This document shows positions 11,144-48,306 of a stretch of DNA of 64,000 nt, one piece after another (the stretch's first letter is position 1; every line of letters begins with the position of its first letter). The notes below the pieces were generated by a model. That model searched no databases. It had not been told where the DNA came from and worked only from the letters and a program-made list of their open reading frames with translations. A program made the translations under genes and the position numbers. The DNA is taken from positions 1 through 64,000 of the forward strand of contig JBIOXB010000014.1 of the NCBI GenBank assembly GCA_044869275.1. Reading direction: 5' to 3'. The DNA comes from a bacterium. GTDB lineage: Bacteria > Zhuqueibacterota > Zhuqueibacteria > Zhuqueibacterales > Zhuqueibacteraceae.

Positions 11144-11164
11144 CGCCCCAAGGGAAGTGAAAAG

Positions 11165-23163: not shown

Positions 23164-23267
23164 GAAATCACTCCACTGAAATAAAACTTGAGAATAAATG
23201 CCATAACGCCTATTTTGCGCTGTCGCCACAAAAGGTCTTGTTTCATCCTCCACTTCCGGACGGTGTT

Positions 23268-26541: not shown

Positions 26542-27222
26542 CTACATACGCTGCTTATAGAACTCGATGCGCTTGTCTTTGGAATCCAGGCCCAATTCCT
26601 TGAGCCGGCGGCGCACATCGAACCAGCCCATGCGATAGTTGCCGTAACGCGGCGTGGCCAGGAGCTGCTTGATCTTGAAGGTGCCGGCCTCGGGATTCTC
26701 GGCAACGATCGTGCGGATGTAATCCTCGAGGCCTTGTGCGGTTTTGTTTTTCGTGCCCGATACTTGTTCGGCCACGGCGGCGCGCGTGGCAGTCTTCACC
26801 ATAACGCCGTCGTCGCTGGCGGCTGCAGACGGTTTTCCGCTCGCGGGTTTCCGAGGCAGGCTGCTGCCCCTGTCGAAATCTTGCAGCGCCTCCTCGATCG
26901 TGTCGAAAGCCTTCAAGATGTAATGGAATTCGAGCAATTCGAAGACTTCATAAACATCCGGGATCATGCGCACCAGCTTGAGGTCGCCGCCTTTTTCGCG
27001 AATACCTTTGATCTCGCTGATGAAAATACCCCATCCCGCGCTGCTGATATAATCAACGTTGCCGAGGTCGATGATAATGTCGTACGTGCCCGCTTTCAAA
27101 AGCCCGTCCAGCGCATGCTCCAATTCAGCAGACGTGGTCGTGTCGATATAACCGCCTACTTTGATGATGGCGATATGGTGATTGACACCGGCTCTTTCCA
27201 CGGACACTTGAATACCTTCCAT
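26542..27222 (-). CDS. STAS anti-sigma antagonist fused via a linker to an HTH-like C-terminal domain
   Basis: GYIDTTT, IIDLGNVDYISSAGWG STAS motifs; low-complexity linker; C-term NPEAGTFKIKQLL...L.ELGLDS..KR; AGGAG RBS. Confidence 0.88.
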   Translation of the reverse strand: MEGIQVSVERAGVNHHIAIIKVGGYIDTTTSAELEHALDGLLKAGTYDIIIDLGNVDYISSAGWGIFISEIKGIREKGGDLKLVRMIPDVYEVFELLEFHYILKAFDTIEEALQDFDRGSSLPRKPASGKPSAAASDDGVMVKTATRAAVAEQVSGTKNKTAQGLEDYIRTIVAENPEAGTFKIKQLLATPRYGNYRMGWFDVRRRLKELGLDSKDKRIEFYKQRM

Positions 27223-27266
27223 GGTTCACTCCTGAGGCATACAAATTATATTTTGAACCATTGCGC

Positions 27267-27295
27267 AATATAAAGGAATGGTCACCAAAAGTCAA
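27267..27295 (-). promoter_or_regulatory. Sigma70-type promoter for the STAS-HTH gene
   Basis: Minus strand TTGACT-N17-TATATT, about 45 nt upstream of ATG 27222. Confidence 0.6.
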
Positions 27296-27432
27296 CACTG
27301 AATTAAGGTAAAAATGGCTTTGCGCACTAACAGAAAGAATACCCACCGACGGGCGGAATTGCGCAACGCCCGGGGGTTAAGTTTTCCCAAAAGCGCTCTT
27401 CCAGGAAACTGGCGCCCGAGCTGGCCGAATGG

Positions 27433-30400
27433 CTACGCCGTGACGGCGCGCTTCATCATCATGCGGCCGGCCAGCTCGATTTTCCGGCGAATATCGTCGC
27501 GGCTGGAGTCGATTTCCAGCACGCGCTGCCATTCTTTCATGGCCTCCATATATTCCCCACGATTGGCGTAAATGACCCCGATGTTCTCGTAGGCGGTGGT
27601 GTCGGAGGCGTCCAATTGTTTGACGCGCTGGTAGGCGCGCGCCGCCTCCTCGTACATGCGGTTGCGAAAATAGGCATTTCCCAAAATGCTATGCGCCTCC
27701 TTGAAATTGGGAAACAGCACGATGGCGCGCTCGAATTCGCGGATCGCTTCTTCAAACTGCTGCGCCCGGTAAAATCGCAAGCCCGCGATCAGCAATTGTT
27801 CGCGCTCGTCTTCGCTCGGTTCCGTGTGTCCCTGCTCTTTCGGTGGCAAAATCATGGCGGTGGTGTGCAGGCTTTGCGGCACGTCTGTGGTTGCTTCCTT
27901 GCCGTTGCCATTGAAATCGGGCGATCCGGCTGCCGGTCGCGCCAATTCCTCGCCGGCAAACGTTTCGCCCACCGCGGCCGCGGCCGTCAAATCCGGATCC
28001 TCTTCCAGCGGAACCGCAAGATTCTCAGTTCCCGCGTAGGTCATGAGTTCATCCAACTCCACAAAAGGCAATCCCACCTCGCCCTCGTGTTGTCTGCGAT
28101 CTTCCGGAGCTCCCTCGGCCTCCTCCGCTGTTTTGGAATCGGCGCCGGTCAAGTGCTCGCGCTCCAAGGTCTGATCCTCCCGCACCGGCAGCGCCTCGCC
28201 GGGGAGTGCACCGCTAAAAGAAAAATCGATTTCGCGGCGCAACAAATCATCCACCGCCGAAAAATCCTCGTCGCTTTTATGCCGCTCTTCGCCGCCCTGA
28301 AAAACTGAGAGCGCGCTCCCTTCTTCCTTTTGCAGTTCTGCAATCGACGCTGATGCCGGCGGCGAAGATTCGGCTGCGGGTGTTTCCGGATTCGCACTGG
28401 GGCGCTGCCCGTGAAACTCTTCCAACATCGTTCCCCCCGCAAACAAGTCTTCAAAACTGATCCCCACGGTATCCGTGTGAGAGACCGGGCGCACGACAGG
28501 TGGATTGCCGGCGCTGCGAATCTTCTCTTTGTCCAAAACTCGGGACGGCCCTTGCTCACGTGGCGGCGGGGACGCCGGTGTGTCAGGTGGAAGGGCTTCC
28601 TCACTTGCCAGCAATTCCTCGATCGGCGTAAACAGAGAAACGGTTTCAACCTCCGGCGTCGTTTCTTTCTTTTTGTGAACGACACGCGCTTCCGGAGCCT
28701 CACGCGCCGCCGGTGGCGCGGGGGGCGCTGCCGGCCTTTCTTTGCTCTCTTTTTTTGCCGGGGGAATGGCAGGCGGAGCCGGCGGCGGCATGGGCCGCGG
28801 CGGTTTTGCCGCGGACTCGAAGGCTCTCGAACGGTCCAAAATGACTTCACCGGACAGCGTGAGCAAGGGTGTGCCGGGCGGTTTCATCGGGCGCTTGGTG
28901 CGGCCACCGCGCGCGACAAAGCCTTCGCGCAATTGCCGGGTGTTCAGCCGGTTGCGCACCAACTCGTCGTAGATTTTGTTTTCCGGAATGAGAGTAGAGC
29001 CGTAAGCTTCGGTATTGAGCTCTTCACTGATGCGCTTCGCGCCGTATTCGGGATGGTTCTTGATGATGTCGAAAATCTTGACTTTGTCCTCGATCGCGAT
29101 GTGCTTGGCCTCCACCTCGATCTCCGCATCGACCTCGACGCTCTCCACGCCTCTTTCTTCGAATTCCTTTTTGTACTTGTTGTAATAAGCGTAGGTCGTG
29201 ATGCCCACCAACTCGCAGGCTTCGCGGATGCTTTTGCCTCCGACAATGAATTGGTGCGCCTGTTTCGCGCGCTGCAACTCCACCTTTTCGGGCGAGGTTT
29301 TTTCTTTGATGGCAACGAGTGTGATGTCGTCGGATTGCATTTCGCCGGCGGTGAACGAGAGAATCTCGTCTTTGATCTTCTCCACAAACGGCTTCACGCG
29401 CAGAACGCCGTTCTCGCGGATAATCTTCAGCAGGCGCTCTTCGCCGAACAGGTCGCGCTGCGCGTTCATCGCTTCGGTAATGCCGTCCGTATAAATGAAA
29501 AGAATGTCATCCTCCGCCAGCTGAATGGTGTCGCTTTCGATCGATTTACGGAACAATTCGTCGTCGGGCAGGCGAATGCCGACGGGAAACCCGCGCGGAT
29601 TCAGGTAATAAGTCTTCTTCGAGCTCGGGCGATAGAGAATCATGGGGTTGTGGCCGGCGCTGGCATAATTCAGGCGGCGGCGCTTGCTGTCGATGATGAC
29701 GTAAAAAAGGGTGACGAACATGCCCCTTTTCATGTCATCGATGACGGTCTTGTTCACGCGCGCCAGCACTTCCGCGGCGTCTTTCACGCCCCGTGCTTCG
29801 GTGCGCAGCGCCTGGCGTATCATGGTCATCACCAAACTGCCGGGTACGCCTTTGCCGGAAACGTCTGCGACCACCACGCCGAGCGTGTCTTTGTCCACTT
29901 CCACGAAATCATAATAATCGCCGCCGACTTCGCGCGCCGCCTCATAATGGCTCGCGAGCTCGTAGCCGTCCAATTCCGGAAACTCACGCGGCAGCAGGGT
30001 TTGCTGAATCTCCTGCGCCACCTGCATTTCCTTTTGCAGGCGCTCCTGGTCGGCCAGGCTTTTTTGTGATTCGCGGAACTTGCTGGTGATCTCGGAAAAC
30101 GCCTGGGCGATTTCGCCGATTTCGGTGGAGGAGTCGATGTCCATCTCGTCGCCCATTTCGCCGTGGTCGGCGAGGCGCACCCATTCGGCCAGGCGATGCA
30201 ACGGCGTCATCAGGATATAAACCAAAGCGAACGCGCCGACGCAGCCCAACAAAATCACCGAGGCCGCCACGCGTGCGTATTCCCAGCGCACCGCGGCGAT
30301 GCGGTCATCCACATAAGCCTTGTAGGCGCGGATGTGCAGCGTGCGCTCTTCCGGCGGATCGCCGCGCGTTTGCAGCTTGGTGATCACGTCGTAAACTTCG

Positions 30401-31332
30401 AAGCGCGTCGTTTGCTCGTCCGGGCCTTTGTGCTCGACTTCATACAACGAGGTATTTTTATCGATCTTTTGCTTCTCGGATACGGCGGCGGCAAATTTGC
30501 CAAAAAAAAGTTCCTGATTGTTGTGTCCGACGATGTTGCCCAGCGGATCCACCAGCGCGATTTCGTACAACAATTCCTGGCGGTCCTTGTAAGCGTCGTG
30601 CAGCAGCTTGCAAATCTCATTGCCCAAAAAGTCGTTCAACAGGGCAGGATTGTATTCCAGGTTGCGCGTGACTTCGGCATCGACACTGCGCAAGGAAGTC
30701 AGCAATCTATTGAATTCGGTTTCCTTGGCCTCGTAATGAAAATACAAATACCCCACTGCGACGAGGGCGATCAACGCCAGACACGTACGCACCCAGTATT
30801 TCGCTTTGAGCGAGAAGGGGATCGCTTTGACTGCGGACTTGAAGACGGGAATGCCGAAGAAGGACTTTTTGGGGCTGACCGTCTCGAAGCTTTTGGTCAT
30901 GCGCAGCTCATTGCCCTCTTCCGTGCGGCGATAGTCGATCTCGTCCATGAGCTTGCGCATCATGAAAATGCCCAAGCCGCCCTTTTTGCCAATTTGCACG
31001 TAGCGCTGCAAGTCCGGGTCTTGCACGCGGCGGGGGTCGAAGAACTTGCCTTGATCGATCAGGCAGATGGTGAGGCTTTGCTTGCGAATCAGCGCGCGAA
31101 TGGTGATGAAGCCTTCGCCGCCGGCCTCGCGATAAGCGTGGCGCATGAGATTGGTGCTGGCTTCATCCACGGCCAGCTTGAAAGCATTGACGACCTTGTC
31201 GGGGAAGGTATATTTCCTGCCGATGCGCACGACGAAATCGCGCATATCCACCAGGTGATCGGTGTGGGCAGGAACCTTGAGTTCTTCTTTTATGATTTGT
31301 TTGAACAACTCGCTACTCCGCGACCGCGCCAA
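27433..31332 (-). CDS. Membrane-bound bifunctional partner-switching regulator: RsbW-type HATPase kinase, TM, extracytoplasmic domain, TM, HAMP, SpoIIE PP2C, tandem HTH, disordered linker, TPR
   Basis: LAVDEASTNLMRHAY, DQG, GGLGIF; two hydrophobic helices; EIGEIAQAF HAMP; GGDYYD, ADVSGKG, YTDGITEA, SDDIT; C-terminal TPRs; TTG start. Confidence 0.88.
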   Translation of the reverse strand: MARSRSSELFKQIIKEELKVPAHTDHLVDMRDFVVRIGRKYTFPDKVVNAFKLAVDEASTNLMRHAYREAGGEGFITIRALIRKQSLTICLIDQGKFFDPRRVQDPDLQRYVQIGKKGGLGIFMMRKLMDEIDYRRTEEGNELRMTKSFETVSPKKSFFGIPVFKSAVKAIPFSLKAKYWVRTCLALIALVAVGYLYFHYEAKETEFNRLLTSLRSVDAEVTRNLEYNPALLNDFLGNEICKLLHDAYKDRQELLYEIALVDPLGNIVGHNNQELFFGKFAAAVSEKQKIDKNTSLYEVEHKGPDEQTTRFEVYDVITKLQTRGDPPEERTLHIRAYKAYVDDRIAAVRWEYARVAASVILLGCVGAFALVYILMTPLHRLAEWVRLADHGEMGDEMDIDSSTEIGEIAQAFSEITSKFRESQKSLADQERLQKEMQVAQEIQQTLLPREFPELDGYELASHYEAAREVGGDYYDFVEVDKDTLGVVVADVSGKGVPGSLVMTMIRQALRTEARGVKDAAEVLARVNKTVIDDMKRGMFVTLFYVIIDSKRRRLNYASAGHNPMILYRPSSKKTYYLNPRGFPVGIRLPDDELFRKSIESDTIQLAEDDILFIYTDGITEAMNAQRDLFGEERLLKIIRENGVLRVKPFVEKIKDEILSFTAGEMQSDDITLVAIKEKTSPEKVELQRAKQAHQFIVGGKSIREACELVGITTYAYYNKYKKEFEERGVESVEVDAEIEVEAKHIAIEDKVKIFDIIKNHPEYGAKRISEELNTEAYGSTLIPENKIYDELVRNRLNTRQLREGFVARGGRTKRPMKPPGTPLLTLSGEVILDRSRAFESAAKPPRPMPPPAPPAIPPAKKESKERPAAPPAPPAAREAPEARVVHKKKETTPEVETVSLFTPIEELLASEEALPPDTPASPPPREQGPSRVLDKEKIRSAGNPPVVRPVSHTDTVGISFEDLFAGGTMLEEFHGQRPSANPETPAAESSPPASASIAELQKEEGSALSVFQGGEERHKSDEDFSAVDDLLRREIDFSFSGALPGEALPVREDQTLEREHLTGADSKTAEEAEGAPEDRRQHEGEVGLPFVELDELMTYAGTENLAVPLEEDPDLTAAAAVGETFAGEELARPAAGSPDFNGNGKEATTDVPQSLHTTAMILPPKEQGHTEPSEDEREQLLIAGLRFYRAQQFEEAIREFERAIVLFPNFKEAHSILGNAYFRNRMYEEAARAYQRVKQLDASDTTAYENIGVIYANRGEYMEAMKEWQRVLEIDSSRDDIRRKIELAGRMMMKRAVTA

Positions 31333-31585
31333 AGATCGTCAAAAAAGGGCCATCAGCTACGCACCGTTCCGGCTCCACGCCCGAGAGGGGGAGGCCGTTT
31401 TTCCAATCCCCAGTTTCGCTTGCAACCATGCCCTTCCCGGGGGCGGGACAGCCATCGTACAGCGGAACAAAGTGAAGGCGGTTTTTGGCAACCGCCTTCA
31501 AAAATCGTCAATTCAAATCAAAGTTGCAAGGAAGGATTTTCGAGGCTGCCATGCCCGCAGGGCAATTTGGGGGCCTCGTGCCACG

Positions 31586-33592
31586 CTACTTCCGGTTCAG
31601 CTTGTCACGTGCTTGATCGATCGCGTCGAGAATGTATTTGTTAAAGCGATCTTCCGTCTGAATCTCTTCGAGAATCTTCAGGGCCGCAGCGTAGTTTCCG
31701 CCCTGGCTCAAGCGCGCGGCTTCGGTGAAGCGCTGGCGCAATTTTTCCGTGGCGAATTCTTTGACTTTCGCGTTTAGGCGCGACTCGGCATCAAAGATGT
31801 AACGCTTCGCCAGCGGATTGCCCGGATCCGTCTTCAACACCTCTTGGAAGGAGCTGACCGCCGAGCGATAATCCCGGCTGTTATAATATTGCACGCCCTG
31901 CGTGACCAAATCCTTCACATTCAATTGTGTTTGCAATTTGGCCACCAAGTTGGTGATTTCGTTTTTCTGGCTGGCGCTCAGACTGCCGTCGCTCAAGGCG
32001 CGGTTGTAAAGCTGCACCGCTTCGCTCAACTTGCCCTGTGCCTCCAGGCTGCGCGCGCGCTTGAGCAAGTCGGTGACTCGACCATCGAGTTCGCGCTGCG
32101 TTTCGTTGATCAATTCCTTCAAGCGTGGATTGTTGGGCGCGCGGTTCAAACCGATCTGCCATTCGCGAATGGCTTCGCGGTAATCGCCGGCGGTGAAATA
32201 GTCCATACCGCTTTTGATTTGCGCGGCCACGGCCAAGCTGTCCAATTCGCGTGTCTTTTTGGCCGCGGCAATCTTTTCCAGTTCTTTTTCCTTCAAGCGT
32301 TGCTCTTCCGCGAGCTTCTCTTCGGATTTTCCGGCCCACTTGCGCGCGTCTTCATCGCCGGGGAAGATGCGGCTGGCCTCGGTATAGCGCAGCTGCGCCT
32401 GGAAATATTCACGGCGTTGAAAGTACTCGTTGCCATCTTCCATGGCCTTGGCAAAATCCGCTTGATTCTGCAAATGCAATTGGCGCTTGACTTGATTTTC
32501 GGCGCGATCCTGTTCTTTGCGGCGCTCGGCCTCGATCAGCTCGGTTTTGGTTTTGCCGAGCTGCATGGTGATGCTGATGCGATGCGGCGCGTTCAGGCCC
32601 TCGGTGCCGTTGACATCATTGGAGTAGTTTGCCATGGCGTAGTCAATGGTGAAGTTCTGATACGTCACGCCGGCGCCAAAGCTGAACACCTGGCCGTTAC
32701 TCCCCAGGCGCAGCATGGCGCGGTTTTGATACACATACTCGGCGCCAAATTGCAGGCGGCTGGGCGTGCCTTCCACGCTGTTTTTGAAATTGAACAGCAG
32801 ATTCACCACGTCCGCGCCGTCGCCCAGATGCACGGGTTTGGCAAGCGAAGCGCGAAACGTGCGCGGTGGAATATCGGTTTCCGTGTCCAGACGCAAACGC
32901 GGCTCGATCAGATTTTGTATGGCCACACCCAGGGACAAATCCTGCCAAATGCCTTCGCCCAGGTGTGGGCGGTAAATAAATCCCAAGTCAAACGATACGC
33001 CCGTGGCCGCGTCAATATCCGTAAACGTCTGGCGATCATATTTGATCGTCCCCCCCACGGACAGGGCGAAAGGAAATTCCTTGGCGTATGAAATCAAAAA
33101 CTGATCCTGGCCGAAAGTGGCAATGCCGGTTTCCTGGCTGGTCAAGTCTCTGCCCTGCACATCACCGACGTCCCAATGCAGCCAGGCCACGCCAAAAGTG
33201 CCCACGCGCAGGCTCGGATGCGCATAGCCGACATAGTTGTATTTCGCGCCGGCCATCAAGGGCGCATAGAACAAGGTGACATTCTTGCGCTGCAGCAATT
33301 CCAAACCGGCAGCATTCCAAAATATCGTCGTGGCATCGACCGGCATGGCAATCGTAGCGCCGCCCAATCCAATGGATCGCGCACCCGCGCCCAATGCGAA
33401 GATGGATTCCCGGCCGGCAGTTTGCGCCTGCCCGGTATGCGGCAGCAAATGGAGGAAACTGCACATCAAGCCAAAGACGATTGCGTGCCAGCCCAGCGCA
33501 CGGCGTTTGGCTTTGGAATTGCCCCGCGCATCAGCCTTGCCTTGCATTCTTTTCATTTCATCACCTGAGGATTGCAATGCTCGTGCTTTCAT
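31586..33592 (-). CDS. PorV/PorQ-family outer-membrane beta-barrel fused to a coiled-coil/TPR region
   Basis: ALGAGARSIGLGGA...DATTIFWNAAGL PorV-like N-motif; amphipathic strands ending IDYA..HRIS; multiple TPRs; ATG overlaps giant gene stop (TAATG); alternative start 33556. Confidence 0.8.
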   Translation of the reverse strand: MKARALQSSGDEMKRMQGKADARGNSKAKRRALGWHAIVFGLMCSFLHLLPHTGQAQTAGRESIFALGAGARSIGLGGATIAMPVDATTIFWNAAGLELLQRKNVTLFYAPLMAGAKYNYVGYAHPSLRVGTFGVAWLHWDVGDVQGRDLTSQETGIATFGQDQFLISYAKEFPFALSVGGTIKYDRQTFTDIDAATGVSFDLGFIYRPHLGEGIWQDLSLGVAIQNLIEPRLRLDTETDIPPRTFRASLAKPVHLGDGADVVNLLFNFKNSVEGTPSRLQFGAEYVYQNRAMLRLGSNGQVFSFGAGVTYQNFTIDYAMANYSNDVNGTEGLNAPHRISITMQLGKTKTELIEAERRKEQDRAENQVKRQLHLQNQADFAKAMEDGNEYFQRREYFQAQLRYTEASRIFPGDEDARKWAGKSEEKLAEEQRLKEKELEKIAAAKKTRELDSLAVAAQIKSGMDYFTAGDYREAIREWQIGLNRAPNNPRLKELINETQRELDGRVTDLLKRARSLEAQGKLSEAVQLYNRALSDGSLSASQKNEITNLVAKLQTQLNVKDLVTQGVQYYNSRDYRSAVSSFQEVLKTDPGNPLAKRYIFDAESRLNAKVKEFATEKLRQRFTEAARLSQGGNYAAALKILEEIQTEDRFNKYILDAIDQARDKLNRK

Positions 33593-36500
33593 TACTTCAC
33601 CACCGCGACTTTGGTCGTGACCGTGCCAGCGCTGGTCTTCAACACGGCCATATAGACGCCATTGAAAACCAGATCGCCATTGCCGTTCCTGCCGTCCCAT
33701 TCGATGAAGCCCTGGCTCACCCCGTTGGTGCGCGCGCCGGCTTTGCCCTGGGGATCGGTCGATTTGAAGGACTTGGTATAAACCAATTCTCCCAGCAGGG
33801 TAAAGATGCGGAAATCCACCTCGGAGTCCTGCGGCAGGGAGTAGTTGAACGTCGTCCGGCCGTTGCGCACCGTGGAGAACGGGTTCGGATAATTGTAGAA
33901 TGAATCTTCGTAATTGGCGCTCGACAGCACCGCGGCCACGGAAGTGATCGTGCCGCCCGCGAGATTGACCTGCACCTGCTTTGACGGTGAGTCCGCGTTT
34001 TCTGCAATAATATCGTTGCCGCTGCGCACCGTCAGGAAGAAATCATCGGCGGTCGCGGCATTGGCCACGTCAACCAAAATCGTGGCTTGCTTCGAAGCGC
34101 CGCCGAAAACCGTGTCGATGATCGCGAAGTTGAGCGTCAGCGGATTCGTATTCGGAATCTCTGTCAGTTGCCCGAGCACCTTGTTCGGATCATCGCCGGC
34201 CACCACTTGCACGCGCGCGACCGCCGCGTTGGGCGGCAGGTCCTGGTTTTGACTATTGACGACGTAAAACTTCAGAGTTTTCATCACGATATTGCTGGAG
34301 CCTTCATTGCCTTCGTTGCGCCAATCCAGTGCCAGCACGGGAATGCCCTTCTGCTGGCTGATCACCGGTCCGGCTTTAATGCCCTGGCTCGCGCTGATAT
34401 CGGTCACCGTCAAGATCGTCTCTTCGGTGCGGATGTTCAGAGTCCTTTCCACGACGCTCGCCGGTGCTTCATCACCCGTGTTCCTGTCGTTGGGATAAGG
34501 CTTATTCAACGTCAGCGTGATCACCTCCGCAACCACGGAGGGGGTGTTGCGCGCCGTGACCTGCCATCTGGCTTGGCTGTTAATCGTGGTTTTGGCCAAC
34601 GGTTCGGCGGTGGTGTACCCGGCCGGCAAAACCAGGTTGATACTCCCGGCGCCCACGGTATCTGCCTCGCCTCGATTTTCCAAGATTGCCGTGATTTCGA
34701 ACGGCTGCCCGATGCTGGCAACATTATCCAATGCTACCGATTGCGGATATGTAATGGAGGCGGACAAGAACAAGTCTGCGCTTTCGACGATGTCAACCAC
34801 CAAATTCGACGAGATGGAGCTCACTTCGCTGCCGCTGTTGGCATCCTTGCCAGTGACGGTGACGTAAATCTGTTGCTGCGACAGCCGGTTACGCGGCGCC
34901 CGCATCTGCCAAACACGCGAGGTTTCGACGTCCAAGCTGTCAAACCTTTGGATTCTGTCCGCTTCATTGACAAAACTGAACCCTGCTGGCACAACCAGTT
35001 CTGCGCGCAACGTCGTCAGATTGCGCCCTTTAATCAGGGCACGAACTCTGAATTCTTGTTGCGTGCTCAACGTATTGTCCGCTGCCCCAGCCGGCTCGTA
35101 AATATAGAGTTGATCTACAAATAAAGTGCCAACCGAGTCCGTGCGCACGGCTTTGTTGATGACAGAATTGTCAATTCCGCGATTCCATACTGCCGGGCCG
35201 CCACTATTCTCATCATTCAACCGATTCAGCAATTGCACAGTCAGTATGCTTTCCGGTGTCGGTATGGGTGGCGCTTGCGCAATCCATTCCACCACGCCAG
35301 AGCTACCACTTGAGATGTAGATTTTCTTCTCCAGGTCGTCTGTGGTAGTAACACCAGTTTCACCCAATTGCAGACGAACGGTGGCAGTGTCAACCGCGGC
35401 AGCCACACCCTGGTTAGCCAAAGTCGCCCGAATCGTGAACGTCTGATCGACAGTCAATGCGCCGGTCGTATCCTGGCCCGGCTTGATAAGCTTGACAGAA
35501 AAATCAAGCGTGGCTTGCTGGACGGCTTGAACACGCACGGTGTCGCTGTTCGTCACTGGTACACCTGTGCCATTCTCGGTGACTCCTTCAGCCTTGATGA
35601 TAAACGAGCGTGTATCCACCGGTGCACCCGGCACTAGTATCTCCCAGCTTTCTTGCGCGGAGAAATCAAAAATCGTGGCTGACGAACCGGATCTGAACTC
35701 GTATCCAGTGTTGGAGGGCAAAGTCAACGTGATTTTCTTTTGTGCCAAGTCTTTGCTGAAAGCCAGGGAAGATTCAATCTTGAAAGTCTGGCCGGTGGAG
35801 ACCACGCCGTCCTTCGCGCCTTCGGGGTCGATAATGACGGATTTACTGATATTCAAATTTGAGAACACGACGTTCACCAAAGCACTATCGGCGGACTTCG
35901 CTACTATCGCGCTTGCGGCACTATTCAGATCCCTGGGCACCGTGGTCATATTCACAGCCAGTGGGCCTGCGGTAGCGGAATCCGGTGCCTGTAGCCTCCA
36001 CACCACTCTCTGACCCGGGTTGAATGGCTGTTCCATGCCGGGATCGAGGATGGTGAATCCGCTGCCTTCCGGCAGGCTGAGGGTGAGGCGGCCGGATTGA
36101 TCCACCTCGGCAGCATTCGGAAGGTTACTTACTTCGGCGTTCAGCTCAAATATCTGATTCGTGGTCAGATTATTGAAATCAGCATTGACCTCAAGCGCCA
36201 GCTCTGCCGGCAATTGGATGCGGACTTGCGCCGTGGTATCGGCGCCGCGATTGATGTTCGCACGGCCGCCGCTGATGGCCGCGGTGGCATCCAGAACTCG
36301 CGCGACGAAATTTTCCGGCTGATTGTCCGGAGTTGCCGCGGCGATTACCTCAAATCTGATCTGGCGCTGTTGTCGTTGCGGCAGAGAAACAATGGTTTGC
36401 TGCTGCGCTGGAATGTGCGAGCTGTTGGTGCTGGAAACCAGTTCGACCAGGACGTCTCTCACGTCTTCCAGACTGCTGTTTTCAACTTCGACTTCGATGG

Positions 36501-42500: not shown

Positions 42501-45500
42501 TTTTCACGCGCACCGGTGCACCCACCGCAACCGTAAACAGGTTTGTGCTGTCGTCCAGTGCCGTGGCATGATTCGCCACGATGCGGCCCGAACCCGGCAC
42601 TTGCGGGTCAAACTCCGTCGAAACATTGATCGCGGGTGAGACCACGCCGATGCCGTTGCGCGCGATCCACGTCACCGTGTAATCGCCGAGATAATTATTT
42701 GAGGCATCGTAACCGGCCGCGTGCAACGTGAGCTGGCCGTCGGTGGTGAGATTTCTGCCGGTGAAGCGCGTGCCGTCGCCGCTGCTGCCTTCCACAATAC
42801 GCACGCGGAAGAGATTGCCGCTCGATACCGTGATCGTGCCCGTGAAGCCATCGATCAAAGTGGGATGATCGGCATTGATCACCCCGGTGCCGGCAGTCGA
42901 GGCCGTGAGGCGGGTGGTCACGCCGTTATTCTGTGACAGTGAACCGATATTGCCGGTAACGTTCCAGCTCACGGACACGTCTTGCATATAGTTGCCATCT
43001 GCATCAAAGCTCGCCGCATGCACGTCCTGGGTCTGGCCAGTGGTCAGATTCAGCGTGGTAATCTCACCGATATTGCCGGAGGTGCCGGTCAAAACTTTCA
43101 CACGATACCCTGCGCCGGGATTGACCGTGATCACACCCGAGCTGTCGTCAATGGCCGAGGCATGATTCGCGACAATTCTACCCGTACCGGTGGTGTTGGC
43201 GTAAAACGTGGTCGAGGCGGCATTCGTGGCCGGATCGAAGATCCCGATGTTGGCGGTGATCTGTGCGACCAGCCAATTCACGTTTTGATCGCCGGTGTAA
43301 TTGCCGAATGCGTCATAACCCGCGGCATGCACCGCCAGGATCTGATCCGCGGTCAAAGTCTTCGTGGCCAGCTCTGCCGGCGCGTCGCCGCTGCTGCCTT
43401 CCACCACCTTGACGCGCTGCAAGGGTCCGGCAATCACGTTGAATTGGTTGGACTGGCCGCTCTTACCGCCGCCACTAACGTTGAGAAACACCCCGTCCTG
43501 TTTTTTCGTGAGGCGCGCATTATTGACCGTTACCACGGTGCCGTTCATCGCCACGCTCGACGGCGTCAATGTGCTCGTGGCATCGCCCAACGCAACCGTG
43601 CCGTTGAAATTGACGTCGTTGCCGCTGGCGTCTTTAGCCGTGATCGTAAAACTGAAATTCGTGCCCGCTTGTTGCGTGGGAATGGTGCTGAACACGAAAT
43701 GATCCAGGCCCGAGGCGCTGACGTTGAAACTGGTGGAGTTGCCGCTGTGACCCGCGCCATCCGTGACATTGATGATGCGACTGCTGCCCGTCGCCGCAAT
43801 GGTGACACTTACCGTGCGCACGCCGGCGCTGAAGGCACCGCTGGTTGAGGGCGTAATCGTGCCGGAATTCAAGGAAATCGTGACCGCTCCGCTGAAACCG
43901 GTCACGGTATTGTCGAATTGGTCTTGCGCCGTTATTGTAATCGGGAAGCTTTGCCCGGCAATTTGATCTGCAACCGTGGAAATGGCGAATTTGCTCAACG
44001 CCGCCGGGGCGACATTGAAAGTGTTCGATGGGTTGGTTTTGCCCAAGCCGGTGACCGTGAGGCGATTGCTCGTGAAGCTTTTGGTAATGGTGAAATTCTG
44101 TGTCAGAATCCCGGCGGTAAAATTGTTGCTGGTGGCGGGCGCAATCGAGCTGCTCAAATCGGAAAGCGACACGGTGCCGGTAAAATTCGTGACCGTGTTG
44201 TTGCTGGCATCTTTCGCCGTAACCGTGATATTGAATTGCACACCCGCGGTTTGATTGCCGATGGTGCTGATTTCAAAATGATCCACGGTCTGCGCCTGCA
44301 CGTTGAAGGCGTTCGAATTGCCGCTTCTCACCGGCGAGCCACCGCTCACGCTGATGATATTGGCCGTGCGCGCCTGAGTGATGGTGACACCTTCCGTGCG
44401 CACACCGCCAATGAATGTGCCGCTGGCAGCGGGGGCGATGGTGCCGGTCAGGTCCGAAATCGTCACCGTGCCGGTGAAATCGGTTTTGAGATTGTTTTGT
44501 GCGTCGCGCGCACGCATGGTGACACTGAACGGCGCACCCGTGGCCTGGTCGGATATCATGTCCAGCGTGAAGCCATTCAACGCGCCGGGATTGACATTGA
44601 ACAAATTCGAGGTGCCGCTGCGGGCCGGCGCGCCGCCGGTTGCCGTGAGCTGATTATCGTTGCGGGTGAGATTTACGGTCACGTTTTGCGAGGCCAGCAC
44701 GCCGCCCGACAAAGACGCGCTGGTGACGCTGATGCCAGTCAAATCCGTTATCGTCACCGTTTGGTTGAAATTGGCGACAGTGTTATTGAACGCATCCTGC
44801 GCCACGACGCGAATCGCGAAGGTCGTGCCCGCGGTTTGCGCGCCGATATTGGCGTCGCTCGTATTCGTCACTCGGAAATGATCCAGCAGCGCGTGCGTCA
44901 CTGTAAAGCTGCTGCTCTGAGCGGTTTTACCGCTGCCACTGGCAAAAATCACGACATTATTCTGCGCCCGGGTAATGCGCGCATTATTAATCGTCACTGC
45001 AGATTGATTGCTGAACACCAACGGCGAGGCCGTCAAAGTGTTCGTGTTGTCACTCAGAGTCACCGTACCGGAATGCGGGATATTGTTGTTGTTGGCATCC
45101 TGTGCCGTCACGGTCACGCTGAAATTTTGCCCGGCAATTTGATTGCCGACCGCGGCGATCACGAAATGATCCAGTGCGCCGGCATTGACATTGAACACAT
45201 TCGACTGTCCGGCCTTGCCGGCGCTGGCGATCGTGATCCTCGTGCTTGTGGCCGGCTGCGTGAAAGTCACCGTCTCCGCGCGCATGCCTCCGGCAAACGC
45301 CCCGCTGGTGGCAGGCCCCACCGTGCCCACAGTGGCGCCGATCGTGGCCGTGCCATTGAAACCGGTGACGGTGTTGTTCAAGGTATCCTGTGCCGTGAAG
45401 GTGACCGGAAAGCCGGTGCCGGCAGTCTGGGGCGTCGCAATGTTCGAAACCGCAAAATGATGCAGTGCGTTTGGATTCACCGTGAACACATTAGTGCTGC

Positions 45501-46251
45501 CAAACTGTCCCGTGGCCGCGGTTGCCGTGATCACCCTGCCCGTGCCTGCCAAATCGGTTCTCACCGCTTGCGTGAGTGCACCCTGCGCAAATGCGGCACT
45601 GGTGGGCGGAATCACTGTACCCTGATTCGCGGTGAACGTGACTATGCCGGCAAAAGATTTGACCACGTTTTCATAATCGTCGCGCGCCGACATCACCAGA
45701 TTGAAATTCACGCCCGCGACCGGCGGCGTGGTAATATTATTGATTGTGAAATGATCCAGTGGCCCGTGAATGATTCTGAACGCCGGCGAGGTGGCGGAGT
45801 CTATGCGCACATTCGCCGCGGTGAGCGTTTCAATAAAAAGGCGGAAGGTGTCCGCCACTGTGGAATTATAAACGATCGCCAATTTGATTTGCGCGGAATC
45901 GCCCGCCGCCAGGGCCGTGCCGGTATTGTCGCGCGTGAGCGTCAACACGTGATTCACGTTTTGGATGCTCGCGTAGCCTCCATTCAGCCCGCTATCGTTG
46001 ATCACGGCGGCAACCGCGGAATCGGTAAAACCCGGAGGGAACGTGATACGAAGCTTGCCGTCGGCAGGAATACCGGTCCCCGTGAGGCTGCTGCGGAATT
46101 TAATGGTATAAAGCGCGCCCGAGCCGGCGGTGGAATCCGAGGGCGTGACATTGACTCGGGAGAGCAGGCCTTGTCCCATGCCCGGCGCCGCCGCGATCAT
46201 CACGGCCAGACCAGCCCAGCGCAAGAATTTCCTTGGACGATGCGTCATCAT
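33592..46251 (-). CDS. Giant (4219 aa) repetitive Ig-like surface protein/adhesin with T9SS-like/FlgD-Ig CTD
   Basis: Signal peptide; three families of about 100-130-aa beta-sandwich repeats; C-term FYNYPNPF...IFTLLGELV...WDGRNGNG..V.NGVY...KVAVVK. Confidence 0.9.
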   Translation of the reverse strand: MMTHRPRKFLRWAGLAVMIAAAPGMGQGLLSRVNVTPSDSTAGSGALYTIKFRSSLTGTGIPADGKLRITFPPGFTDSAVAAVINDSGLNGGYASIQNVNHVLTLTRDNTGTALAAGDSAQIKLAIVYNSTVADTFRLFIETLTAANVRIDSATSPAFRIIHGPLDHFTINNITTPPVAGVNFNLVMSARDDYENVVKSFAGIVTFTANQGTVIPPTSAAFAQGALTQAVRTDLAGTGRVITATAATGQFGSTNVFTVNPNALHHFAVSNIATPQTAGTGFPVTFTAQDTLNNTVTGFNGTATIGATVGTVGPATSGAFAGGMRAETVTFTQPATSTRITIASAGKAGQSNVFNVNAGALDHFVIAAVGNQIAGQNFSVTVTAQDANNNNIPHSGTVTLSDNTNTLTASPLVFSNQSAVTINNARITRAQNNVVIFASGSGKTAQSSSFTVTHALLDHFRVTNTSDANIGAQTAGTTFAIRVVAQDAFNNTVANFNQTVTITDLTGISVTSASLSGGVLASQNVTVNLTRNDNQLTATGGAPARSGTSNLFNVNPGALNGFTLDMISDQATGAPFSVTMRARDAQNNLKTDFTGTVTISDLTGTIAPAASGTFIGGVRTEGVTITQARTANIISVSGGSPVRSGNSNAFNVQAQTVDHFEISTIGNQTAGVQFNITVTAKDASNNTVTNFTGTVSLSDLSSSIAPATSNNFTAGILTQNFTITKSFTSNRLTVTGLGKTNPSNTFNVAPAALSKFAISTVADQIAGQSFPITITAQDQFDNTVTGFSGAVTISLNSGTITPSTSGAFSAGVRTVSVTIAATGSSRIINVTDGAGHSGNSTSFNVSASGLDHFVFSTIPTQQAGTNFSFTITAKDASGNDVNFNGTVALGDATSTLTPSSVAMNGTVVTVNNARLTKKQDGVFLNVSGGGKSGQSNQFNVIAGPLQRVKVVEGSSGDAPAELATKTLTADQILAVHAAGYDAFGNYTGDQNVNWLVAQITANIGIFDPATNAASTTFYANTTGTGRIVANHASAIDDSSGVITVNPGAGYRVKVLTGTSGNIGEITTLNLTTGQTQDVHAASFDADGNYMQDVSVSWNVTGNIGSLSQNNGVTTRLTASTAGTGVINADHPTLIDGFTGTITVSSGNLFRVRIVEGSSGDGTRFTGRNLTTDGQLTLHAAGYDASNNYLGDYTVTWIARNGIGVVSPAINVSTEFDPQVPGSGRIVANHATALDDSTNLFTVAVGAPVRVKILAGLSGNGSEVNNATLVTGDPPLDMHASSFDRDNNRITDVSVTWELSTPIGTLIPTTGIGTRFTATTAGSGVITANHASLDDDATGTITVQSGNLSYVKVVLGPAGQGSELGNLSRTTDDLVQVHAAGYDAQNNYLGDQTVDWSILGEAIGALNPTNGASTNLTLTRPGAARLVANHVSARDDSSGVITVITGNLHHLTILTGDAGNLLPVDERSVTTDESFTVHAGGFDADNNYKNDVTVNWTITGDPIGGVSPLSGTSTTFNPTKTGRGQIRADHASAGSDLTGIITVNPGQLSYIKVFENPGGQGAELGNKSLSAIQELRLYAAGFDFDGNYIRDEAVNWSSAGTLAPVVTATGVTNFTFQPTLAPANGTIRATHAAAGFDTTGTINITVGPLHRVVVLSGGTGATAPQGDITMNPGQQLTVHAGGFDAENNYRGDEIVGWAVDGSMGTVNNANGLSTVFTAGTIGSGSIRANHPTATVIDGNSGTITVVSGVVARVELRTAANRGGEVFGVYNMTTDSAVTIHAAGYDAGNNFLGDVNVTWSNTGNLSPAVSATGSSLTFSPSLGAANGSVNGTIVGTYTGGVISDATGQITVRPGNPSGTVDLTPNPNSLPANGTATAIVISSVIRDADNNEVGPNRRFTVAVTPPASGEITDPDVDPVTPGKQIQTNAQSRLSFTFRAGIAGGVATIGVNSGLGATGSTTINLGSLSIIQIVAVPSFVTRGQTGASVSMSVQNLGTTPIQALQGGLTFTGTQPRNTDYIVTPAANNPTTIAGNGTVNLNFNVAVGNNAALEMITIDGDISGTVNGTPVNDLGANATDTWQVLRPAQLAVQIVNTAPTTVAGGQNGIAVNVTVANNSGVQFSADAVIDSVRLRFRQGAVDQSIGYAVIPNSNNPGSISGNGTADFSFVVNVRTGAVLGDIVIDAEAYGHDANSGASAHDLNGATTPDSWTVIPGNAFGITQITVSQPSVTANMTRPWTVRMELQNSADSPVNLSLAQDKTLIHFIIGAVDLTSQYGIQHPTALDGGGTVLPGNATGALTFRITQTGLSAGRATIVGFVAGTDGAGQPLSDNTNDSGSGEVTVQMRGTLDISGALQFSQTTITRNQTSPWTITANVTNTGQSAVRYSTDSTRVTVGSDPAFNFSYPTAFLDGDSIIAANEVKALRVTVTRSGNQIGSLPVSLRLKGTDYNNPSGPPIASAPVSTPIESQTPADLVIQQVRASRPSVTAEQTNPWQITLVVRNQGGSTVSVKVDTSTNVRFRIGNAFQSGYASSLVQPSWLGTGSLNLAGNTTDSLRFSVNTTGTAPGLAFIWAKVAATELNSSASRVATNNGSSVTVQTSPNVTYIPNSLTPKTVNNGTQYAFRVRVRNSGTATLDLTATPTPTRFVFGSGVTFSADLDLNKVRSIPPGDTTLTFVGENIPVNMPQTAYAPTLQLRGAHNGNNYSSDVTFASNELRVTAPANLQVISMHSTQTKVTAGMLKPWSIVMTVANNGNSPAQLDSVGLRLLNGGDVTRDFDVVTPSRFLGSNNTNLAAGARDSLRFEIRKTGEKIGGTTVEGYIRVVDLSNNQKLEARSSGNNGSFEVQSRAALNIVSLTPSQQTVTVNQTQVWSVDMLVRNNGGSGVRVSFDQAVTRLTFSPNAGYFMPQPTALVGGGDIIAGNSERTLRFEIAQTGSQVGQNNITGQIGAIEVNSDDPRSDDTQSGGSSFVTVQTAASLRLTSTAIVPASAPNAPRVNIGQPFEVRVEVENRGGEAADSVIVRLSSNGSSTINPPSDKLIPSVSSGSPQSVVFAVMASNQENNGERFTATIISAKAHNTRTTAQQEQPVDNTEDVIVQRRAELAIVSVNPSAAVVPAESNNPWTIPVVLRNNGGAAIALNPPIDDNLTITIDGAQQNDYTIVPPAFLSRNGNLILPGGEIDTLLYRVDNTGRRGGAATIHALIAGKDRNNNLALSAEKNGEVRIETIASVKITFTRPIVNHFFQNSNVGSVNTNQNFAIEVEVENSSLEDVRDVLVELVSSTNSSHIPAQQQTIVSLPQRQQRQIRFEVIAAATPDNQPENFVARVLDATAAISGGRANINRGADTTAQVRIQLPAELALEVNADFNNLTTNQIFELNAEVSNLPNAAEVDQSGRLTLSLPEGSGFTILDPGMEQPFNPGQRVVWRLQAPDSATAGPLAVNMTTVPRDLNSAASAIVAKSADSALVNVVFSNLNISKSVIIDPEGAKDGVVSTGQTFKIESSLAFSKDLAQKKITLTLPSNTGYEFRSGSSATIFDFSAQESWEILVPGAPVDTRSFIIKAEGVTENGTGVPVTNSDTVRVQAVQQATLDFSVKLIKPGQDTTGALTVDQTFTIRATLANQGVAAAVDTATVRLQLGETGVTTTDDLEKKIYISSGSSGVVEWIAQAPPIPTPESILTVQLLNRLNDENSGGPAVWNRGIDNSVINKAVRTDSVGTLFVDQLYIYEPAGAADNTLSTQQEFRVRALIKGRNLTTLRAELVVPAGFSFVNEADRIQRFDSLDVETSRVWQMRAPRNRLSQQQIYVTVTGKDANSGSEVSSISSNLVVDIVESADLFLSASITYPQSVALDNVASIGQPFEITAILENRGEADTVGAGSINLVLPAGYTTAEPLAKTTINSQARWQVTARNTPSVVAEVITLTLNKPYPNDRNTGDEAPASVVERTLNIRTEETILTVTDISASQGIKAGPVISQQKGIPVLALDWRNEGNEGSSNIVMKTLKFYVVNSQNQDLPPNAAVARVQVVAGDDPNKVLGQLTEIPNTNPLTLNFAIIDTVFGGASKQATILVDVANAATADDFFLTVRSGNDIIAENADSPSKQVQVNLAGGTITSVAAVLSSANYEDSFYNYPNPFSTVRNGRTTFNYSLPQDSEVDFRIFTLLGELVYTKSFKSTDPQGKAGARTNGVSQGFIEWDGRNGNGDLVFNGVYMAVLKTSAGTVTTKVAVVK
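40702..43428 (-). repeat. 9 tandem repeats of about 101 aa (type B) in the giant protein
   Basis: Consensus G.L..V.(I/V)..G..G...(H/Y)A.G(Y/F)D...NY..D..V.W...G.I.A.H....TG.ITV. Confidence 0.85.
43429..45765 (-). repeat. 8 tandem Ig-like repeats of about 97 aa (type A) in the giant protein
   Basis: Consensus LDHF.I..I..Q.AG..F..T.TA.D..NN....F.GTV..; eight copies counted in the translation. Confidence 0.85.
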
Positions 46252-46287
46252 GACACGAATGCTCTATTTTAGATTAAGGGGGAGGCG

Positions 46288-46800
46288 TTATTGATTCGTC
46301 TTCCGCACGAATTGGATCGGATAACTCTTTTTTCCCGCGGCGGCATTTCCCGAGGCACTTCTCTGCATGAACGTGACCTCGAGGTTGCCGGCCAGCGTCG
46401 CCGGACTGGTGATCAATCCCAGCATCAGCTCCACTTGCCGGCCTGGCGGAATGGCTGCACCCAAGCCGGTGCGCCGCACGCGCACGAGGCTGCCCTCGCG
46501 CGTGAGCTTGAAGCCGCCGTTGATGGTGGTCGAGCTGGCTATTTCCAGCAGGCGCAAATCGAGCGCGGCAGGAAACTCAAAAACCAGCTCGGCTTGTGTG
46601 TCGAGCGTATCGGCCGTGGTGTAGCGAATTTCGTACAACGAGGGTTTGCCTGCCTCAGCTCTGAGGGCTTGCATGCTGAACGCAGGGGAGGCATCATTTG
46701 GGCGGGCGCTCGACCGCTCTTGCGCTATCACCGCGAAAGCGGAGGCAAGCAAGGCGAGCGGCACCATGAGTGGCAGCCTGCGAAGGCTCAGGCTTCTCAT
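46288..46800 (-). CDS. Small exported protein paralogous to the giant protein's N-terminal domain
   Basis: AGGAG RBS, signal peptide; AGKPSLYEIRY..FP..INGGF..RRTGLGAAIPPG aligns with giant AGSGALYTIKF..FP..LNGGY..TRDNTGTALAAG. Confidence 0.8.
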   Translation of the reverse strand: MRSLSLRRLPLMVPLALLASAFAVIAQERSSARPNDASPAFSMQALRAEAGKPSLYEIRYTTADTLDTQAELVFEFPAALDLRLLEIASSTTINGGFKLTREGSLVRVRRTGLGAAIPPGRQVELMLGLITSPATLAGNLEVTFMQRSASGNAAAGKKSYPIQFVRKTNQ

Positions 46801-46896
46801 CGGTTCAACTCCTGTCTCATCCATGTGACGTTGTTTTATCATGGAACATGAAAGTAGGGTTTAACTCAATAAAATTGCGATTTCGCAACCATTTTC

Positions 46897-46913
46897 TGCA
46901 AACATCACGCCAG
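46897..46913 (-). promoter_or_regulatory. Sigma54 (RpoN) -24/-12 promoter candidate
   Basis: Minus strand CTGGCGTGATGTTTGCA, exact GG-N10-GC spacing, about 100 nt upstream of the first gene of the giant-protein operon. Confidence 0.6.
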
Positions 46914-47129: not shown

Positions 47130-48263
47130 CTATTTCAGCATCGCCCGAAGCAAATACACAAAGCTCTTGCTGTCATTTTCCGTGAGCTTCAGATTCCTTT
47201 CCGCACGCTTGTATTCCGGGTTGATCTTCACCGCTTGCCGGAACTCCTCCAGGGCGCGCAGGAACAAATTCCGGGACTGAATCAAATAAGCAATGCCGAG
47301 GTGATTGTGTAGGTCGGGGTATTCGGGGAAGTCTTGCGCCGCGGCGAGCAAGCGTCCGGCGTATGTTTGAATGTATGCCTCATCCCGGCTTTTGCCGCCA
47401 AACATGAATTTCAAATAAAACTCGTTTTCGAGAATCTTATCCGGCGCCGCGGAGGTTTCTTCGCGGGCGTTTTGCAGGTGGATGATCGCCTCGACATGAT
47501 CTTTCCTTGCCAATGCCGCGTGCGCCTCTTGTATTTTAAGAGAATGCTGCGGCGGCGCTCCCGGCGGTATCAGTGCCTCAAGCAGATCCTGCGCGCGCTT
47601 GAGGCGCGTGGACGGCGGCGGCGGATGATCCTGCAACGGTTGCGGCCCCTGCAAAGTGAGCAGCAACGTCAGCGCGAGCAGCAAATGGGTTTGTGAAAAC
47701 CTGGGGTTGAGACGCAACGCCGCTTCGAAACAGGACAGCGCTTCCAGCAGGCGTTCCTGCTCGAGCAAGGCAAGGCCGAGATCGTGATGCAAATCGGGAT
47801 ACTCCGGCGCCAGCTCCAGGCCACGGCGGAACATTTCCTCAGCTTGGACGAAGTCCCGCTGGCGCAAAAAGGCGCGCCCCAGGCCCTGATGCGCCTCCGG
47901 CATCTCCGGACCCAGCTCGACTGCCTGCCGCAACACGGCCAGGGCTTCTTCGGGTAAGTTCTTTTCCAGGAAAAAAGCGCCCAAGCGCAGGTAGGAAGGA
48001 CAATGCTTGGTGCGGCGGACTCTTTCCGCGATATGAAACAGCAATTCCATCTCCGCCATCACTTCCAGATGGAACTGTTGCAGCTTCGGCGAGAGGCTTT
48101 GGGGATTGGTCTCGCCCGGGCAAAGCAGCTCGTGCTGGTCAATGACGCGGCCTCGCTCGAATACATGCGAGACGAATTTCTGCTTGCCCGCGGAATACGT
48201 CGTCTGTACGTGAAAGCGATGCCCGCCGGCTGCCACGTCGCCGTTCAGTCCTAATTGCTGCAT
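47130..48263 (-). CDS. Tetratricopeptide repeat protein with an N-terminal beta-rich domain
   Basis: Repeated YPDLH..LG and A...P TPR motifs; N-term RFHVQT...SHVFERGRVI. Confidence 0.82.
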   Translation of the reverse strand: MQQLGLNGDVAAGGHRFHVQTTYSAGKQKFVSHVFERGRVIDQHELLCPGETNPQSLSPKLQQFHLEVMAEMELLFHIAERVRRTKHCPSYLRLGAFFLEKNLPEEALAVLRQAVELGPEMPEAHQGLGRAFLRQRDFVQAEEMFRRGLELAPEYPDLHHDLGLALLEQERLLEALSCFEAALRLNPRFSQTHLLLALTLLLTLQGPQPLQDHPPPPSTRLKRAQDLLEALIPPGAPPQHSLKIQEAHAALARKDHVEAIIHLQNAREETSAAPDKILENEFYLKFMFGGKSRDEAYIQTYAGRLLAAAQDFPEYPDLHNHLGIAYLIQSRNLFLRALEEFRQAVKINPEYKRAERNLKLTENDSKSFVYLLRAMLK

Positions 48264-48306
48264 GCTCCTCTCTCCTGATCCCATCCCTCAGCATGTTACA
48301 GAATAG

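Follow-up and report, generated by a model that had tools for sequence, protein, structure and literature searches.

We analysed a window of 64,000 nucleotides (nt), the whole stretch of DNA presented here, and find in it a five-gene locus of a KSB1 (Zhuqueibacterota) bacterium that is real and ancient and is an undescribed trans-envelope variant of partner switching. The genes encode a small exported protein, a giant surface protein, a PorV/PorQ-family outer-membrane barrel with a C-terminal arm of tetratricopeptide repeats (PorV-TPR), an inner-membrane sensor that carries a serine kinase and a PP2C phosphatase, and a STAS protein with a helix-turn-helix domain (STAS-HTH). The arm is likely to touch the extracytoplasmic Cache domain of the sensor, as a structure prediction with controls suggests, and to the locus as a whole being a trans-envelope partner-switching circuit built on the shuttle of a type IX secretion system (T9SS) we give a probability of about 0.5. 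The five open reading frames (ORFs) and the parts on which the argument turns are as follows:

46288..46842, minus strand: small exported protein, 184 aa
33592..46251, minus strand: giant repeat protein, 4219 aa
about 33595-33936, minus strand: T9SS-type C-terminal sorting domain (CTD) of the giant
31586..33592, minus strand: PorV-TPR, 668 aa
32558..33592, minus strand: PorV/PorQ-family barrel with N-terminal export signal (PorV-TPR residues 1-345)
31586..32557, minus strand: helical/TPR arm (PorV-TPR residues 346-668)
about 31601-31765, minus strand: predicted docking TPR of the arm, from the complex model
27433..31332, minus strand: sensor, 1299 aa, in the order RsbW-like Ser kinase, transmembrane helix (TM), sCache, TM, HAMP, PP2C, bipartite HTH, acidic/Pro linker, TPR
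30277-30741, minus strand: sensor sCache, from family profile matches
28843-29289, minus strand: sensor bipartite HTH
26542..27222, minus strand: STAS-HTH, 226 aa, with the predicted phospho-acceptor Ser61 in YISSAGWG (minus strand), in what we take to be the register of the RsbV/SpoIIAA motif

This is the place and the layout given by the initial annotation, whose five co-oriented genes, TAATG coupling and two gaps were all found: the giant and PorV-TPR join in a TAATG overlap at 33592, and the gaps as annotated are 253 bp from PorV-TPR to the sensor and 210 bp from the sensor to STAS-HTH. The sensor probably starts at a TTG at 31308 with GGAG ahead of it, in agreement with the family consensus start, which would make the first of these gaps 277 bp. 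The annotation had also placed no sigma factor in the locus, and none of the 37 window ORFs scanned has a sigma domain. Nor did it know of a described system of such composition; our literature search, with subscription journals and supplements outside its scope, found no description of the locus, and the main text of the published account of the KSB1 phylum mentions neither secretion, T9SS, sigma nor adhesin.

Conservation of the arm–sensor pair

Sensor neighbourhoods were collected from the source organism's class, named genomes, other classes, a second phylum and metagenomes, giving 150 distinct sensors after deduplication; the scan of distant metagenomes returned mostly generic SpoIIE genes, with full-length relatives in 9 of 80 loci. 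The nearest sensor homologues are those of KSB1/Zhuqueibacter, the Krumholzibacteriota form a farther group, and distant full-length homologues are known from Eisenbacteria and Zixibacteria. Within the KSB1 phylum a search with the HTH region places the sensor in 141 of 145 genomes, mostly as a single copy. The arm gene adjoins the sensor upstream in 138 of the 143 distinct loci with room upstream, Krumholzibacteriota included, and the remaining five comprise one in-frame fusion and four second, paralogous sensors. Next to the arm gene, on its upstream side, stands a CTD gene in 120/125 loci, and three of the other five still have the giant nearby; two loci (L198 and L221) keep arm and sensor with no giant gene adjoining, and a STAS gene lies at most 3.5 kb downstream of the sensor in 119 of 130 loci.

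The Krumholzibacteriota keep the giant-PorV-sensor order between different flanks, with parA, a TPR gene and two STAS genes added downstream. Of 81 second-phylum genomes sampled, labelled Krumholzibacteriota by inference from near-identical loci, all have SprA, and exactly the same 40 have arm and sensor. Additionally, four genomes hold a second small-giant-PorV-sensor block without a STAS gene, and these second copies group as a single clade, separate from the resident copies, in the PorV tree as well as in the sensor tree, which indicates that the genes for small protein, giant, PorV and sensor moved together and left the STAS gene behind. Because of the Krumholzibacteriota synteny with other flanks, the identical profile across the 81 genomes and the STAS-less second blocks, the tightest pair of the locus is arm and sensor. 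The initial annotation would have given up its proposal had sensor and STAS-HTH not been syntenic with the giant and PorV-TPR genes elsewhere; this synteny held across KSB1 and in the second phylum. Its five-gene unit survives as the arm-sensor pairing but not as a unity of all five, given the second copies without STAS, the two loci without an adjoining giant and the frequent absence of the small gene.

Predicted contact between the arm and the Cache domain

PorV-TPR matches the PorV/PorQ family NF033709 with 114.6 bits against a cut-off of 90, its TPRs coming in addition, and stays below the cut-offs of the PorV equivalog NF033710 (52 against 250), PorP/SprF TIGR03519 (22 against 90.55) and PorE-like NF052230 (21 against 600, TPR part only). 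In the arm, domain and profile searches found no OmpA-type wall-binding domain. Folding of the full protein without an alignment left the barrel at a predicted local distance difference test score (pLDDT) below 50 and only the arm helices usable; the arm is modelled as long helices joined by TPR hairpins, and a fold search with this model gave generic TPR matches only. The topology of PorV puts the C-terminal part of the barrel in the periplasm and, because the barrel did not fold, it is from this topology that we infer a periplasmic position of the arm. The source genome has 20 PorV-family genes above cut-off, of which only two have a tail of ~300 residues, and since most of them lie directly behind a gene with a CTD-like tail, cargo with its own barrel is ordinary there. 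The dedicated PorV of the initial annotation therefore stands as a gene pairing and falls as a speciality of this locus, and the unusual part of PorV-TPR is the arm. Two other tailed PorV-family barrels lie behind CTD-type genes, at G000:C11:23062-24975 (tail ~305 aa) and C34:25604-27079 (~147 aa). At L095:1-5361 PorV-TPR is in frame with the sensor (1786 aa) and the docking TPR is missing, which may be a deletion or a misassembly; this single case, without the docking TPR, was not counted as evidence.

The complex of the arm (PorV-TPR 346-668) with the Cache (sensor 198-352), predicted from a 38-row alignment for each, has a score of 0.77, whereas the best of three controls reaches 0.01; the runs agree in 100% of the contacts, with a partner pLDDT of at least 86. 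Among solved complexes 116 of 157 reach the mark set for this score, and among mismatched pairs 2 of 215; with own alignments these counts apply only roughly. In the model the last TPR of the arm (arm residues 265-319) would pack against Cache residues 233-241 and 262-278. Covariation was measured in 142 aligned arm-sensor pairs, 39 of them used for the model and 103 outside its alignment. For these 103 held-out pairs the 25 listed contacts have a mean z of 0.84 in mutual information with average product correction (MI-APC), a value that none of 6416 shifted registers reaches (mean z 0.003 ± 0.21). The support from covariation is modest and partly phylogenetic. The initial annotation had proposed that the TPR arm contacts the sensor's extracytoplasmic domain, and both the controlled prediction and the held-out covariation support this contact, which we consider likely.

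The proposed circuit and its alternatives

The sensor is, as initially annotated, an inner-membrane protein with kinase, HAMP, PP2C, HTH and TPR parts: HATPase_c_2 lies at residues 21-147, two TM helices at 180-198 and 355-373, SpoIIE at 481-676, an IS481/IS3-like HTH at 688-801 and TPRs at ~1175-1290, with a weak HAMP. The kinase matches PF13581 with 98.8 bits, has RsbW as its closest PDB match (E 2e-20) and keeps its N, G1 and G2 boxes in 138-142 of 142 homologues; the PP2C matches PF07228 with 169.6 bits and keeps four motifs with the metal-binding aspartates in 131-142 of 142. Conservation of this kind suggests that both enzymes are active. The periplasmic part is a single Cache (sCache_3_2 in 3/38 close members, above cut-off in several distant homologues), and the family profile weakly matches NF038263 SiaA. 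In the STAS protein the STAS domain spans residues 13-112 (TIGR00377, 60.7 against a cut-off of 53.45), and the loop Y[IV]SSxGWG recurs in 142 of 143 STAS homologues. The sequence thus contains the kinase, the PP2C phosphatase and the STAS protein with a conserved putative phospho-Ser of an RsbW/RsbU/RsbV-type module. In 22 of the 150 distinct sensors the protein itself includes fused GWG-type STAS domains, which supports the pairing of sensor and STAS in the initial annotation, and Krumholzibacteriota sensors often carry three. Sigma factors of the SigB/F/G type (TIGR02980) were above cut-off in none of 81 KSB1 genomes and in one of 14 control genomes.

Paralogous sensors without an arm gene were seen at G031:C6, G036:C23, L186, L187 and G036:C35; four lie behind an unrelated gene of 253-270 aa, two of these four being 1926-1990 aa long, and the one of G031 has lost its first HTH.

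The C-terminal HTH of the STAS protein is homologous to the second HTH of the sensor (hhalign probability 95%, E 3.5e-8). That of the sensor is bipartite and transposase-like, with matches of weak E-value to HTH_28 in 37 and to HTH_21 in 38 of 44 members; the match to NF033577 is confined to profile positions 2-112 and rve gives none, so that a DDE integrase core is lacking. It resembles the DNA-binding domains of IS481/IS3/Tc1-type transposases in being bipartite and differs from these transposases in having no DDE core and in being found nearly throughout the phylum, mostly once per genome and with strong conservation. The model of the sensor HTH is helical and HTH-like (pLDDT 81.5); a Foldseek search gave no match at E 0.001 or better, and the top VIA match, Tc3 transposase (Z 5.9, root mean square deviation 9.6, 100 aligned), is tied with unrelated HTHs, while an Atlas search with the STAS HTH gave no usable match. 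The initial annotation saw the output in the shared HTH; as most Krumholzibacteriota have a free STAS without HTH and the fold matches are weak, we regard a DNA-binding HTH as output as doubtful.

In the circuit that we propose, the giant would be exported through SprA and passed to its own PorV-family barrel, as known T9SS biology and the coupling of the genes suggest, and the outer-membrane barrel probably holds it. The ~320-residue C-terminal arm of the barrel would span the periplasm and dock with its last TPR on the Cache, as predicted with support from covariation. The state of barrel and cargo, loaded or empty, pulled or slack, could then shift the Cache-TM-HAMP axis and with it the balance of kinase and PP2C, and these, judging from their motifs, would set the phosphorylation of Ser61 in the GWG-type STAS proteins. 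The output would probably not be a SigB/F-type sigma factor; more speculatively, it would most likely run through the STAS partners and the transposase-like bipartite HTH of the sensor, and might feed back on a sigma54-driven surface-protein operon or on surface behaviour. We see an even chance that the arm-Cache contact is used in this outside-in direction. The contact or surface sensing of the initial annotation is one possible use of it, beside the monitoring of secretion, tethering and inside-out control.

Several results weigh against this circuit. Swapping partners with nearest neighbours only halves the contact z to 0.42, so that half of the signal survives; the 39 model-alignment pairs show no covariation signal at the contacts; the top covarying pairs, by mean-field direct coupling analysis and by MI-APC, lie outside the interface (0-1 of the top 25-100 inside it, chance level); conservation in the 142 pairs is no higher for interface columns than elsewhere; and the held-out sequences are kin of those in the model alignment. 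TPR and Cache folds are common, so the pair may pass by likeness to solved complexes. In the neighbourhoods, four paralogous sensors have no adjoining arm gene, the housekeeping neighbours pilM, pilO, rsmD, coaD and idh are syntenic within KSB1 too, and since kin genomes are not independent the 40/41 split of the second phylum probably amounts to few events. Finally, PorU in the source genome could cleave the CTD and free the giant from the barrel, most Krumholzibacteriota loci have a free STAS without HTH, and 34 Sigma70_r2 matches in the source genome make a sigma target elsewhere possible.

If the binding of arm and sensor merely anchors or positions the giant, then the arm would carry no signal, and the Cache would respond to a small molecule, if to anything. 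sCache domains usually bind small ligands; the arm has no OmpA-type wall-binding domain, so that the sensor could be the anchor; and Krumholzibacteriota loci contain parA and a RomY-like TPR gene. Triads of cargo, shuttle and PorE are described as static anchors (PMC12618676). However, conservation of the Cache is low (mean column identity 27%), which does not look like a fixed ligand pocket; the domain on which the arm would dock sits directly on TM-HAMP-PP2C, and both enzymes are conserved. We think pure anchoring unlikely.

The same arm-Cache contact would also serve a signal running inside-out. LapD/LapG/LapA works in this direction through HAMP, and the enzymes of LapD are degenerate. Here a cytoplasmic phospho-state would set the conformation of HAMP and Cache and, through it, whether the giant is retained, displayed or let go by the shuttle, for which the sensor has large cytoplasmic parts capable of input (linker, TPR or fused STAS) and the source genome a PorU. 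Both active sites of the sensor are, unlike those of LapD, intact in 131-142 of 142 homologues, which suits an output role, and a domain scan found no periplasmic protease gene in the locus, so that we rate this direction as quite unlikely.

In a secretion checkpoint the arm would be no messenger; instead a CTD not yet exported, or the small protein, would bind the Cache in the periplasm and so tune T9SS or operon expression. Such a checkpoint has a precedent in the binding of the PorA CTD to PorY (PMC12152298), and the small protein, having an export signal and no CTD, may stay periplasmic; but many lineages have no small gene, the arm-sensor pair also occurs with no giant adjoining, and the arm passes the complex test, which makes a checkpoint very unlikely. 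That the adhesin with its shuttle on the one side and a self-contained partner-switching pair on the other are co-regulated neighbours without a physical link, held together by genome inertia, would fit the synteny of the whole KSB1 region, housekeeping genes included, the different promoter types of operon and STAS and the terminator-like hairpin ahead of the sensor in the source genome, but is very unlikely given the gene order kept in another phylum with different flanks, the movement of the block as a unit, the identical profiles of arm and sensor, and the complex prediction with its covariation.

Surface proteins, promoters and relation to known systems

The small protein is a free-standing homologue of the giant's N-terminal domain (hhalign probability 95%, E 3.8e-8) with a hydrophobic N-terminal stretch at residues 23-41 and no family match in domain and profile searches. 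Its gene is missing in many lineages, and the giant there often still starts with the same domain. A likeness to the BslA/BslB hydrophobins (Atlas feature score 0.90) was not confirmed by alignment-based searches of the PDB and with PF17735, which gave no match. Pairwise comparisons within the giant bring out at least two families of ~100-aa beta-rich repeats, so the repeats of the initial annotation stand, whereas its immunoglobulin (Ig) fold comes down to weak Pfam matches and composition, and its T9SS-like CTD falls just under the cut-off (TIGR04183, 22 bits against 23, E 1e-4, residues 4121-4217); a Pfam-type domain scan found no CHU_C match on the giant. CTD-bearing ORFs in relatives range from 1248 to 5300 aa, some being fragments of split genes. 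A second small and giant pair at G000:C120:8921-16315 (163 aa and 2060 aa, similar CTD) has a near-consensus sigma54 motif and no PorV or sensor behind it; this pair may share the arm-bearing barrel. Three more exported proteins ending in FlgD_ig/CTD, one of them a matrixin-type peptidase, are encoded at 7833-16287 of the window.

The source genome has SprA and PorU above cut-off, as expected of a T9SS translocon; PorM/GldM and PorN/GldN were not found in it (94% complete), in searches that were silent in control genomes as well. With SprA throughout the second-phylum sample and in the source genome, KSB1 and the second phylum may have a T9SS without the known motor.

Further features of the locus are:

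47130..48284, minus strand: TPR protein with a weak RomY-like N-terminus (NF053858, 20 bits, below the cut-off of 50)
46898..46912, minus strand: sigma54-type (-24/-12) motif, GG-N10-GC, upstream of the small gene
31473..31500, minus strand: putative terminator-like hairpin with an 11-bp stem, between PorV-TPR and sensor
27267..27295, minus strand: sigma70-type motif TTGACT-17-TATATT, ahead of the STAS gene

A motif of the sigma54 promoter consensus lies upstream of small/giant in 34 of 45 loci (34/39 KSB1-type, 0/6 Krumholzibacteriota); shuffles give a mean of 0.6, the reverse strand 0 and wrong spacings at most 1, and upstream of sensors it occurs in 0/148. In the genome background 4.7% of genes have it, and the source genome contains rpoN and 46 sigma54-activator matches. 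Matches upstream of PorV (15/126) were rejected, almost all being a coding artefact of the CTD's N-G-V-Y-L-A codons. A sigma70-type motif like that of the window stands at most 150 nt upstream in 71 of 94 STAS-HTH loci, a count made without shuffle control. The initial annotation had suggested that the last two genes may be transcribed separately; this is probable for STAS, with its own promoter-like site, but less so in general for the sensor, which follows closely behind PorV in 73 of 102 loci, so that the gap and hairpin of the source genome are local and lineage-specific. At 27221-27261, on the minus strand, an 8-bp inverted repeat would let the start-codon region of the STAS mRNA pair with the predicted 5′ end, and its GGTTC...GAACC core is kept, at variable spacing, in 14/14 loci of the window's family compared, which suggests a leader hairpin controlling translation.

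The TPR/RomY-like gene, beyond the range initially annotated, is a probable sixth member of the locus: it lies upstream in KSB1, after STAS in L214 and, in many Krumholzibacteriota, downstream of the sensor between parA and the two STAS genes. One KSB1 family (L181-L183, L104) has no STAS at the locus, and in L182, L183 and L104, where the upstream side is visible, as in the four second copies, the TPR/RomY-like gene is absent too; the two genes may act together. Roadblock/LC7 genes at G000:C96:45487-46359 and C184:29588-31166, one adjoining a small GTPase, encode possible partners for a RomY-like domain (cf. PMC9481161). A second GWG-type STAS-HTH gene, at G000:C79:19405-20175, is followed by a gene with a sigma54-type motif; its neighbours are presumably glycogen-synthase-like and capsule-export-like, and it is possibly a second substrate tying the switch to polysaccharide export. 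In the window itself an FHA-GAF-SpoIIE phosphatase gene lies at 23238-24980, 1.6 kb from the STAS gene, a position seen in the same genus only, and another small STAS gene at 1953-2291, near the window start.

The design would work like SypE-SypA joined to cell-surface signalling, and the locus belongs to none of the named families. In FecA-FecR-FecI the periplasmic extension of an outer-membrane barrel touches an inner-membrane transducer encoded alongside; here the barrel is a different one, with a C-terminal TPR arm instead of an N-terminal signalling domain and a phospho-switch instead of anti-sigma proteolysis, and domain and profile searches found no TonB-dependent receptor, FecR-like anti-sigma or adjacent extracytoplasmic function (ECF) sigma in the locus. 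Sigma-less partner switching is already known (PMC8256260). SypE-SypA of Vibrio fischeri, a kinase/phosphatase fusion acting on a STAS protein (PMC3610818; PMC8256260), shares the N-terminal Ser kinase and PP2C in one polypeptide, the STAS target, the surface/biofilm locus and, as described there, no known sigma target; SypE has a central REC between its enzymes, whereas our sensor has TM-sCache-TM-HAMP and no REC, an HTH after them and a predicted input from an outer-membrane protein. Cognate cargo shuttles are known from Flavobacterium, where PorE anchors PorP-cargo complexes to the wall (PMC12618676); this Type B CTD/PorP-SprF/PorE arrangement likewise has a large adhesin gene, its own barrel shuttle next to it and a periplasmic partner, but the barrel here is PorV/PorQ-like, and the periplasmic part is fused to it; this part lacks a wall-binding domain and, by prediction, extends to a signalling enzyme. 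In PorA-PorY-PorX-SigP of Porphyromonas gingivalis a T9SS component also signals to an inner-membrane sensor in the periplasm, the ligand being a cargo CTD that acts on a His kinase and an ECF sigma (PMC12152298), in place of our shuttle arm with Ser kinase and PP2C. Finally, in SiaABCD of Pseudomonas aeruginosa a PP2C and a kinase balance the phosphorylation of an anti-sigma-antagonist-like protein in biofilm control, with separate kinase and phosphatase, a proposed diguanylate cyclase output and no outer-membrane arm (PMC7647112).

Little is settled about how T9SS bacteria monitor their surface proteins, and shuttle barrels are seen as passive carriers or anchors. A shuttle touching an inner-membrane phospho-switch would be a further route of envelope signalling, next to the TonB-type surface kind, and through the arm-Cache contact sigma-less partner switching would have a definite physical input, something that is absent in SypE. 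The locus occurs nearly throughout KSB1 and also in further uncultured phyla that bear SprA, and its key claim can be tested with two small soluble domains and no culture of the organism. Only tentatively do we extend the proposal to a phylum-wide surface-sensing machine, in which the T9SS shuttle would also be a receptor and the load or occupancy of the giant filament would pass through the periplasm-spanning TPR arm to the Ser kinase/phosphatase; the switch would need no sigma factor, would act through domesticated transposase HTHs on the sensor and the STAS protein, and would feed back on a sigma54 promoter; if true, such a surface-sensing shuttle would be a new class of trans-envelope signalling.

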